Virus record (IMG/VR): IMGVR_UViG_2548876961_000004
DNA from: a virus
Lineage: Duplodnaviria; Heunggongvirae; Uroviricota; Caudoviricetes
DNA length: 14,398 bases
Strand: one strand, 5' to 3'
Below, piece by piece: positions 1,879-3,184 of this stretch (positions are counted from its first letter, which is position 1; each line of letters begins with the position of its first letter). The notes beneath the pieces are model-generated. The model saw only the letters and a list, made by a program, of their open reading frames with translations. It searched no databases and was not told the DNA's origin. The position numbers and the translations under genes were made by a program.

Positions 1879-2052
1879 TAGCGATAATTTTACTCATCAT
1901 CCTTCACATCTGGCTCTGTAGACAGGGTGGTGCTCACTTCTGGAGTGAATCATGGTTAAACATCTCATTGCTGATGCTTGATATTGAGCATCTGGCGCGC
2001 GGTAAGGGGCTGCGTTGAGATAAGAGCCAGTCATTAAAAATACCTGGATTTA

Positions 2053-2076
2053 GCCTCGCATTCGCGGGGCTTTTTT
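2053..2076 (+). terminator. Rho-independent terminator downstream of the lysis cassette: stem GCCTCGC / GCGGGGC (one G-U pair), loop ATTC, then T6
   Basis: Stem arms at 2053-2059 and 2064-2070, T run at 2071-2076. Confidence 0.45.
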
Positions 2077-2079
2077 ATT

Positions 2080-2123
2080 GCCATTACAAAAGCCACTCCC
2101 TACAGAGTGGCTTTGATAATGGC
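2080..2123. repeat. 44-bp imperfect palindrome / extended hairpin: outer arms GCCATTA/TAATGGC, 2x2 internal loop, inner 10-bp perfect arms AAAGCCACTC/GAGTGGCTTT, 6-nt loop
   Basis: Directly read from sequence (outer arms 2080-2086 and 2117-2123; inner arms 2089-2098 and 2105-2114). No flanking U-tract on either strand, so not a classical intrinsic terminator. Confidence 0.5.
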
Positions 2124-2506
2124 TTATACCCTACACGGGATAACTTAACTGATATCCCTTTTAACGGATAAAGGTATTCAAGCCTGACACATCATGCGCT
2201 GTATCGTCGCTGTATTCCCGCATTAACCATGACCGTAGCCCGACGGGGAACTCCTTCTGCGCGAGTGTGCGGGAATAATCAAAAACGATGCACACCGGGT
2301 TTTTACCGCGCTAATGATTCGCGGGTTTGTCCCTCATGCTCGCCAGTCCTGTGCGGGGGTGGAAGAAACAGGACACTCACACAGATTCTTGTGGGTCGAT
2401 GCTATTCCTTTCTGGATTATCCCGATGCCATTCATGCAAGGGCTGTATCAGACGTTCGTCATGGCTTTCAGGCTGACGGCTCCTCCCGGTGGGGTGGCCT
2501 GCCACG

Positions 2507-2518
2507 GGGCGGGAGCGT
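2507..2518. other. Candidate cosN (cohesive-end site) with variant core GGGCGGGAGCGT, flanked by ACG and CGCGG as in lambda (ACG-GGGCGGCGACCT-CGCGGG)
   Basis: About 17 of 24 positions match the recalled lambda cosN region, with divergence concentrated in the middle of the 12-nt overhang. Location about 175 bp upstream of the small terminase start matches lambda (Nu1 starts about 190 bp from the left end). Confidence 0.4.
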
Positions 2519-2690
2519 CGCGGAAAAAGGCTAGTTTTTGCATTTTTATCGGCCACCATCATCTTTGCATCTTATTGATTATTAATGGTTATTTGTTTTT
2601 TGTATGTCGAATTGAGTGTTTTTTGTTCGACGTCGAACGCGTTTTCTTAAAGTTGTTCGCACGATGCATGTTTAAAGCTCTCCGGAGGAA
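2519..2690 (+). promoter_or_regulatory. Candidate cosB-like terminase-binding region: A/T-rich, direct repeats TGTTTTTTGT (2594-2603, 2617-2626), repeated TTGTTCG motifs, and a perfect 14-bp palindrome GTTCGACGTCGAAC (2625-2638)
   Basis: Repeats read directly from sequence; position between the putative cosN and the small terminase gene is analogous to lambda cosB (R sites plus IHF site). Confidence 0.35.
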
Positions 2691-2692
2691 AT

Positions 2693-3184
2693 ATGGATCA
2701 TGAGTTGAAAAACCTGGTGCTGAATATTAATCAACTGGCGGCTTTATCTGGTCTGCACCGCCAGACTGTCGTGGCAAGACTGAAAAACATTCGTCCCGCT
2801 GGTGGACATGACAAACTCAAGCTATACCGGTTGACCGATATTCTGACTGAATTTATGGGGTTACCACCGCCGGTTGCTGAGGGCGAAATGGATCCACATG
2901 AACGCAAAGCCTGGTATCAGTCTGAACGTGAGCGTCTTAAGTTCGAACAGGAAACGGCACAACTCATTCCGGCCAGTGATGTCAGACGGGAGTTTGCCAT
3001 CTGGGCAAAAGCGGTCGTGCAGGTGCTGGAGACATTACCGGATATTCTGGAACGTGACTGTGGTCTGCAGCCTGCCGCTGTGAGCCGTGTTCAGTCCATT
3101 ATTGATGATCTGCGCGATCAGATAGCCCTGCGGGTGACCGAAGCAGGTGCGGATGATGAGGAGGAATTACAGCAGGAGGAGTAA
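2693..3184 (+). CDS. Terminase small subunit (Nu1-like function; N-terminal HTH DNA-binding domain, acidic C-terminus)
   Basis: 163-aa ORF immediately upstream of and overlapping (TAATG) the large terminase; N-terminal helix-turn-helix-like segment NINQLAALSGLHRQTVVARLKNI; GGAGG RBS 4 nt upstream; synteny cos-terS-terL. Confidence 0.8.
   Translation: MDHELKNLVLNINQLAALSGLHRQTVVARLKNIRPAGGHDKLKLYRLTDILTEFMGLPPPVAEGEMDPHERKAWYQSERERLKFEQETAQLIPASDVRREFAIWAKAVVQVLETLPDILERDCGLQPAAVSRVQSIIDDLRDQIALRVTEAGADDEEELQQEE

Follow-up and report, generated by a model that had tools for sequence, protein, structure and literature searches.

To our knowledge, the late operons of lambdoid phages are usually described as a single Q-antiterminated transcript without internal regulatory RNA signals. 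Differences in expression between lysis and structural genes are usually attributed to translation. Several described systems come close to the locus reported here. Phage RNase III sites (T7 sites of the R1.1 type and those of the lambda N leader and sib) are intercistronic, imperfect helices of ~19-20 bp with an internal loop about one turn from the apical loop, no U-tract and a position just upstream of a ribosome binding site. The 3' stabilisers of the REP/BIME type are stable, strand-specific hairpins without a U-tract that directly follow a stop codon or terminator and are repeated within a region. In bidirectional Rho-independent moron terminators, a GC-rich stem lies between an A-run and a T-run, and the lambdoid 'boundary sequences' (bsq, Sf6) are short conserved sequences at the junction between exchangeable modules of otherwise unrelated phages. 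The put RNAs of HK022 are cis-acting, RNA-polymerase-modifying antiterminator stem-loops. In the Salmonella Hfq-binding RNA of Rfam family STnc560, a terminator hairpin, a U-run, a spacer and a second hairpin follow one another. As for packaging signals, lambda cosQ and cosN are no more than a few tens of bp apart.

Here we describe a palindrome at positions 2080-2123 of a 14,398-nt stretch of prophage DNA (the window, in which position 1 is the first letter). Beyond what the original prediction had proposed from the sequence, the palindrome was found to be the 5' part of a conserved element that reaches 2172 and to sit at a mosaic junction common to very different phages. The locus resembles each of the above systems in part. 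It shares with the RNase III sites all the features listed, a likeness of geometry only: there is no sequence similarity, and its internal loop is symmetric (2x2; C.A, A.G) whereas that of T7 is asymmetric. It resembles the REP/BIME elements in its stability, its strand specificity, its place directly after a stop codon or terminator and its repetition (two copies in 44 of 99 loci), but it lacks the REP consensus, occupies a single position in the lambdoid late operon and is linked to a 3' tail. With the moron terminators it has in common the GC-rich stem between A- and T-runs, the placement and a T8-bearing relative (locus L161). In contrast to them, its U-tract is absent or degenerate in all three stem types, it is not called by a terminator scan, and a conserved lower stem and internal loop add to the length of the hairpin. 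Its junction position recalls the boundary sequences, although neither Sf6 nor HK620 has it annotated under that name and it shows RNA-type covariation that a pure linker would not need. Like the put RNAs, it is a cis-encoded multi-hairpin structure of ~70-95 nt in a lambdoid operon, and HK022 itself carries it; the put sites, however, are just downstream of early promoters, and no sequence relation is known. The match to STnc560 at 1962-2142 (+ strand) follows the same order of features but is weak, with 22.7 bits against a gathering score of 55, mostly contributed by the terminator, and does not amount to membership.

Results

The window matches NZ_CP066753 and many further O157 genomes at 100% identity, and represents a lambdoid prophage of E. 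coli O157:H7 at the position of the Sakai prophage Sp3. Its order runs from the pR' region through a class II holin, the lysozyme RrrD and Rz (1399-1878) to a conserved 50-aa ORF (1866-2018, + strand; phrog_11822, a homologue of Sf6 gene 65), which is the last gene before an intrinsic terminator. The palindrome follows, then ~570 nt without credible genes and finally the terminases; the packaging module starts with the small terminase subunit gene terS (2693-3184, + strand; DUF1441/phrog_141), and the large terminase comes after it. The palindrome is therefore located, as originally predicted, between the lysis cassette and the packaging genes. The + strand intrinsic terminator that had been placed directly upstream of it was also found (~2052-2078). 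It consists of a stem (2052-2071) and the T-tract TTTTTTATT and ends the lysis/50-aa-ORF segment. This terminator is a neighbour of the conserved element, outside its limits, and its position is taken in other phages by other terminator stems or merely by a stop codon. A tRNA/tmRNA scan of the window found none.

Three further regions of the window were noted. Sub-threshold Rfam matches to STnc100 (91-296, + strand; 37.7 bits against a gathering score of 47) and Esr41 (473-562, - strand; 32.3 bits) form a convergent pair just downstream of pR', and probably correspond to the Hfq-bound EcOnc13 and EcOnc32 of Sakai Sp3 (PMC4104026 supplement). The ~330 nt between the element and a probable cosN (2173-2506) contain no supported gene and carry no RefSeq annotation. 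The ORFs 2229-2534 and 2314-2703 gave no Pfam and only weak PHROG matches, and in phage Ayreon an ORF in this region is labelled 'putative late gene regulator'. Finally, comparison of Sf6 (locus L126, 820-845) with window 2026-2090 revealed that in Sf6 the hairpin follows the 50-aa ORF with no terminator in between. The junction in this phage falls at the short repeat (T/C)CATTA(A/C)AAA, found on both sides in the window, which is consistent with deletion or insertion between the short repeats.

A repeat search and RNAfold reproduced both the coordinates of the palindrome and the nested anatomy first ascribed to it (7-bp outer arms, 10-bp inner arms, 6-nt loop). The hairpin (H1, 2080-2123, + strand) has 19-nt arms (2080-2098 and 2105-2123) that are complementary at 17 of 19 positions (89%). 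A 7-bp lower stem pairs GCCATTA (2080-2086) with TAATGGC (2117-2123), a 2x2 internal loop sets CA (2087-2088) opposite GA (2115-2116), and a perfect 10-bp upper stem formed by AAAGCCACTC (2089-2098) and GAGTGGCTTT (2105-2114) is capped by the apical loop CCTACA (2099-2104). This architecture was the minimum-free-energy structure on both strands, with a local z of -6.6 to -7.4, which none of 200 shuffles equalled. Among all 48-nt windows, H1 came second in folding energy on the + strand (-26.8 kcal/mol). Dinucleotide shuffles of the whole window (n = 12) gave minima of -24.1 to -26.4 kcal/mol; corrected in this manner for the look-elsewhere effect, the folding energy is only marginally beyond chance for a 14-kb window. 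The assertion that the structure is too extended to be chance thus finds marginal support in the sequence alone, and it is because of conservation and covariation in other phages that the hairpin is convincingly not a chance structure. A covariance model of H1 (R1) found the hairpin at this place alone in the window, with a + strand score of 67.1 bits and a - strand score of 35.3 bits. A coding explanation was rejected: no + strand ORF of >=20 aa runs across the hairpin, and an ORF remnant of 27-28 aa that ends in the hairpin is limited to one of the stem types described below (type C), types A and B being without it.

Conservation extends from the base of the hairpin, which is the 5' edge, through a near-invariant 3' tail (2124-2172, + strand; TTATACCCTACACGGGATAACTTAACTGATATCCCTTTTAACGGATAAA, also given as GGCTTATACCCTACACGGGATAACTTAACTGATATCCCTTTTAACGGATAAA). 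The resulting element of H1 and tail (2080-2172) is ~95 nt in length and non-coding. In most other phages its 3' edge is directly 5' of the Shine-Dalgarno sequence of the first packaging-module gene. Tail identity among homologues is ~95-100%. RNAfold and RNAalifold predict pairing of TTAT.CCC (2124-2131) with GGGATAA (2137-2143), or alternatively of GGGATA (2137-2142) with TATCCC (2153-2158), closed by TTATACC/GGATAA. In the alignment of homologues (A1, below), 6 of the 7 pairs of helix 2, in the tail, never vary, and the variation is too scant for a test of pairing. The tail also contains a direct repeat, ACGGGATAAC and ACGGATAAA (2135-2144 and 2164-2172), and its hairpin motif TATACCC-N5-GGGATAA recurs with another loop (ACCAG) in locus L141, where the tail has a deletion.

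A further reading is a small-RNA gene in its own right, transcribed from the prophage, of which the element would be the whole or the 5' part. The element is compact and structured, GGGAUA...UAUCCC is followed by UUUU (2159-2162), and the lambdoid prophages of EHEC are rich in sRNAs (PMC4104026). We nonetheless consider such a gene extremely unlikely: a search of the + strand gave no sigma-70-like promoter, and since carriers have unrelated sequences upstream of the element, there is no conserved one. A candidate sigma-70 -10 hexamer in the right arm, GATAAT, has no acceptable -35 at 16-18 nt and reads GACAAT in type C. Furthermore, no Rfam family covers the site and the UUUU is lost in some variants (CCCAACAAGCGG). 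In Hfq CRAC data of O157 Sakai, only two Sp3 sRNAs were found, neither at this site; both lie at ~901.3-901.7 kb, the pR' region (PMC4104026). The known EHEC prophage sRNAs AgvB, AsxR, EcOnc and Pas map upstream of the holin (pR'-holin) or inside structural genes. With no promoter, a variable upstream region and no EcOnc sRNA at the site, an Hfq-dependent prophage sRNA of the AgvB/AsxR/Pas type was rejected.

The element is widespread. An 18-mer from just 3' of the hairpin located it in at least 120 IMG/VR stretches, and BLAST with a 98-nt query matched 106 phage records, including HK97, HK022, Sf6, CUS-3, mEp460, epsilon34 and the Stx2 phages 1717 and 2851. HK620 and P22 also carry it. The carriers comprise siphoviruses and podoviruses, with both cos and pac packaging. 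Among complete E. coli genomes the 98-nt query found 3417 places in 2544 of 5426 (~47%), and 11 of 12 places among the matches listed had no annotation. Species-representative genomes with the element are essentially those of E. coli, E. albertii and Shimwellia, plus a few contaminated MAGs. It is absent from lambda and from the K-12 prophages DLP12 and Qin, and so is dispensable for lambdoid growth in general. In the case of the Salmonella phage epsilon34, the match to the window runs through the terminator (to 2077) and resumes at 2105, with ~800 bp between; a different hairpin, equally paired, is found at the corresponding place.

No RNA or regulatory annotation of the element was found in RefSeq or in the HK97, Sf6, HK620 and P22 records inspected. 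The features overlying it in a few records are hypothetical-protein CDSs and, in phage Ayreon, a 'terminator' label that spans the hairpin. Even at permissive Rfam thresholds the hits at the site stayed at chance level, and no family reached its gathering score, the best over the site being mir-458 (24.5 against 59) and STnc560. The searchable literature on the site sequence, boundary sequences and RNase III in late transcripts gave no description of the site.

A conservation and covariation analysis had been proposed as a check of the palindrome, and its outcome favours pairing. Homologues were aligned with MAFFT (alignment A1, 57 distinct sequences). Across the 17 pairs of helix 1, 97.6% of cells were paired, compared with 33-50% when the 3' partner was slid by 1-3 columns, and RNAalifold recovered the helix. 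Both sides had changed at 6 of the 17 pairs. The covariation score was 0.269 against 0.163 for shuffles, none of 500 being as high, where the shuffle statistics are inflated by relatedness since the homologues are kin and represent few independent events. The sample consists of closely related homologues, and the species-representative genomes provided no deeper divergence. Three or four versions of the stem, differing at 3-4 pairs, share a single architecture: type A (AAAGCCACTC/GAGTGGCTTT, loop of 6 nt), type B (AAGCCCATC/GGTGGGCTT, loop of 4 nt) and type C (GAGACCATTC/GAGTGGTCTC, loop of 3 nt). Within type C, pair 4 of the upper stem occurs as A-U, G.U and G-C, the last in P22. As pairing is conserved with compensatory changes, the RNA-level options of the original prediction, a stabilising hairpin or a processing site, are favoured.

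Individual substitutions, counted as distinct one-sided changes within stem types, distinguish the two strands. In the upper stem 15 of 16 such changes preserve the pair, all as G.U or Watson-Crick pairs on the + strand, and the sole pair-breaking change is at a loop-closing position of type B; with a neutral expectation of ~0.30, derived from the flanking sequences, P is ~2e-7. The flanks themselves show ~50% transversions, and transitions divided 62:38 toward the G.U-forming kind (C>T, A>G). Of 68 distinct variants, 57 fold more stably as + strand RNA than as - strand RNA, and for the upper stem alone the figure is 62 of 67; the window copy has a - strand fold of -30.1 kcal/mol versus -26.8 kcal/mol for the + strand. 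Protection of the lower stem falls short of significance (P = 0.22), with pairing preserved by 7 of its 17 one-sided changes. This stem contains one compensated pair (A-U to G-C) and has a common variant, GCCATCA, with a C.A mismatch. Here it is the sequence that is nearly fixed, both in the CA/GA internal loop and in CAUUA/UAAUG of the lower stem, while the upper stem is free in sequence and fixed in pairing. All variants keep the same geometry of 7 bp, 2x2 loop, 9-10 bp and an apical loop of 3-6 nt. The element thus displays the compensatory and G.U-compatible sense-strand changes of a generic structured cis-RNA. The pair-preserving and + strand-specific nature of the changes therefore points to a sense-strand RNA structure, and we consider it probable that the hairpin is selected as such.

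Two loci depart from this pattern. In L183, the change of the left arm from TTACAAAAG to TTATCAAAG closes the internal loop and creates a perfect 19-bp palindrome, which suggests correction by template switching. In L161, a related hairpin without the internal loop is followed by T8 and forms a genuine terminator between two genes. These rare variants show DNA-level palindrome dynamics and terminator ancestry.

Strand asymmetry also bears on a protein-binding palindrome, as offered in the original prediction, for example an operator-like site for a dimeric phage or host protein such as KilA-N or Rha. Proteins of these two kinds are often encoded just upstream of the element in carriers, the arms CATTACA...TGATAATG hardly vary, three copies of GATAA fall within the element (2116, 2140 and 2168), and symmetric half-site co-variation can mimic that of an RNA. 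However, the upper-stem sequence and the centre vary with pairing kept (loops of 3-6 nt, stems of 9-10 bp), which would shift the spacing of half-sites, and the one-sided changes yield G.T rather than A.C, two mismatches that would be equivalent for a duplex site. Neither a KilA-N nor a Rha gene is encoded near the palindrome in the window. A palindromic DNA operator is therefore disfavoured, and we regard it as very unlikely.

The same variants speak to transcription termination, either leftward (- strand, from the cos side) or as a second tandem terminator on the + strand. The hairpin was originally described as lacking a U-tract on either strand. This was borne out for the + strand, where the tail reads CUUUGAUAAU, but not for the - strand, on which the GC core is followed by a weak tract, UUUUGUAAU. 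This tract, together with the - strand fold energy and the site directly after a genuine + strand terminator, would be in line with a terminator. A consensus scan, on the other hand, calls neither strand of the hairpin, in agreement with the view that it is not a classical terminator, and reports 2052-2071 only. In an intrinsic terminator, at least ~5 of the 8 nt directly after the stem would be U. A U-tract is missing from both strands of types B and C, the - strand stem contains A.C mismatches in most variants, and the window holds no credible - strand gene to the right of the palindrome. Terminator function of either kind has, in our view, a very slight likelihood.

A comparison of flanking sequences reveals that the element occupies a constant position, between the lysis/moron genes and the packaging module and in late-operon orientation, with the large ORFs on either side mostly co-oriented with it. 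Around this constant core the flanks fall into 21 upstream and 9 downstream sequence classes, found in 33 combinations. Breakpoints are located at the base of the hairpin and just after GGATAAA, and the hairpin interior is avoided in 21 of 21 upstream classes. Upstream, one type of junction presents at least 5 different terminator stems, each followed by TTTTTATTG and the hairpin; in the other type, the stop codons of at least 3 unrelated genes (Sf6 gp66, HK97p61/hkbL and others) are 0-2 nt before the hairpin. Downstream, at least 5 of the 9 classes place a Shine-Dalgarno sequence and ATG within ~15-20 nt, the first gene being DUF2560 hkbM/orf80 in P22-like phages and HK97, or the small terminase in others. 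In the class of the window, the tail is followed by the cos region and no gene starts there.

Of 99 IMG/VR loci, 44 have a second copy of the hairpin on the same strand, 194-851 nt upstream; Sf6, HK620, HK97 and HK022 likewise have one. The upstream copy is always of type B, varies only by G.U-type changes and is followed by GATAATGAAACC instead of the tail. Between the two copies lies either a cargo gene (Sf6 gene 66) or a conserved segment of ~190-250 nt that is non-coding. In this bracketing of a segment or cargo by paired copies, the hairpin behaves as punctuation at cassette ends in the post-lysis region. The non-coding segment itself, which is found in HK620 (L205, 2380-2675), HK97 (L124, 1283-1520), Sf6 (L126, 833-1090) and P22 (L206, 2160-2351), lies between a type-B and a type-C copy, folds strongly (z -5.4) and has no Rfam hits. 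It holds the 27-28-aa ORF remnant, which the epsilon34 annotation describes as similar to the N-terminus of ST64T orf118. The segment may represent either the relic of a gene or a structured RNA of larger size.

This modular arrangement is the basis of the main rival explanation, in which the element is a DNA-level mosaic linker, a decayed (bidirectional) terminator that phage recombination has kept and that has no present RNA function. Under the corollary, the apparent conservation reflects hitch-hiking and recent common ancestry. The joining of 21 upstream to 9 downstream classes and the hairpin copies around inserted segments are what a linker would produce. The core resembles an A-tract, GC stem and T-tract, the related L161 hairpin is a real terminator, L183 is a perfect palindrome, the 95-100% tail identity suggests recent spread, and the Sf6 record annotates 'boundary sequences' elsewhere. 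Neutral decay would not, however, yield 15 of 16 pair-preserving + strand changes and 6 compensated pairs given the substitution background of the flanks, nor does it agree with breakpoints that avoid the stem interior in every upstream class. In addition, boundary sequences or terminators are marked in the records of Sf6 and HK620, yet none at the element. We judge the linker account, and its corollary to the same degree, to be rather unlikely.

The original prediction had also offered a cosQ-like sequence needed for packaging termination. A probable cosN was located at 2507-2518 (+ strand; GGGCGGGAGCGT) from a 16/20 match of window 2504-2523 to the lambda end junction (ACG, then GGGCGGCGACCTCGCGG), an identity that we infer, as the BLAST E-value of this match is not significant alone. 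The distance from the probable cosN to the start of terS is 186 nt, compared with 190 nt in lambda, and the mEp460_4F5 record ends at ~window 2501. The probable cosN is also inside the most stable 48-nt + strand fold (window 2473-2523, -27.3 kcal/mol). The element and cos do share an intergenic region in the window, in keeping with a cosQ-like or cosB-like packaging signal, but the hairpin is 384 nt upstream of the probable cosN. Moreover, the element occurs in the headful (pac) phages Sf6, HK620, P22 and epsilon34 and in HK97-type cos phages with unrelated terminases, and lambda is without it. A role in packaging retains next to no probability, and a lambda-type cosQ/cos signal is effectively refuted.

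Discussion

The palindrome is most likely a hairpin that acts in cis on the late mRNA, in its processing, in its stability or as a leader. More specifically, we tentatively propose, at a little short of even likelihood, that it is stem-loop 1 of a ~95-nt cis-acting RNA element on the sense strand of the Q-antiterminated late transcript. That its mechanism is nuclease processing or stabilisation in particular is possible, if on the doubtful side; we infer the mechanism from position and geometry.

Such an element would punctuate, in cis, the polycistronic late mRNA, and three versions can be envisaged. In the first, the ~19-bp helix with its internal loop ~10 bp from the apical loop would present the geometry of an RNase III site. 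The geometry expected of these sites, about two turns of double-stranded RNA with an internal loop ~10-12 bp from the apical loop, is found here, as a matter of geometry only. In the second, the hairpin would block exonucleases. In the third, cleavage would occur in the flanking AU-rich single strand, after which the hairpin would cap the 5' end of the packaging mRNA; the AU-rich single strand between terminator and hairpin would suit RNase E. The outcome may be that the fate of the lysis/moron mRNA is uncoupled from that of the packaging and structural mRNA, and that the first packaging gene acquires a structured leader.

A different function for the same RNA is decidedly unlikely, namely that the hairpin with its CA/GA loop and the two tail hairpins form a riboregulatory leader, either as the site of a phage or host RNA-binding factor or as a put-like RNA that acts on the transcribing polymerase. 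If true, this leader would gate the packaging and structural block separately from the lysis genes, and could be passed between phages whose packaging machineries are unrelated.

On the reading we prefer, that of a late-mRNA hairpin acting in cis, the element appears to be an instance, so far undescribed, of a conventional type of cis-acting mRNA structure. It would provide a testable handle on the processing and stability of late mRNA, including in the Stx-phage relatives of O157:H7. It also marks the exact hot spot of moron cassette exchange, and may thus be of use in prophage annotation and in understanding how cargo genes enter the late operon without disturbing it.
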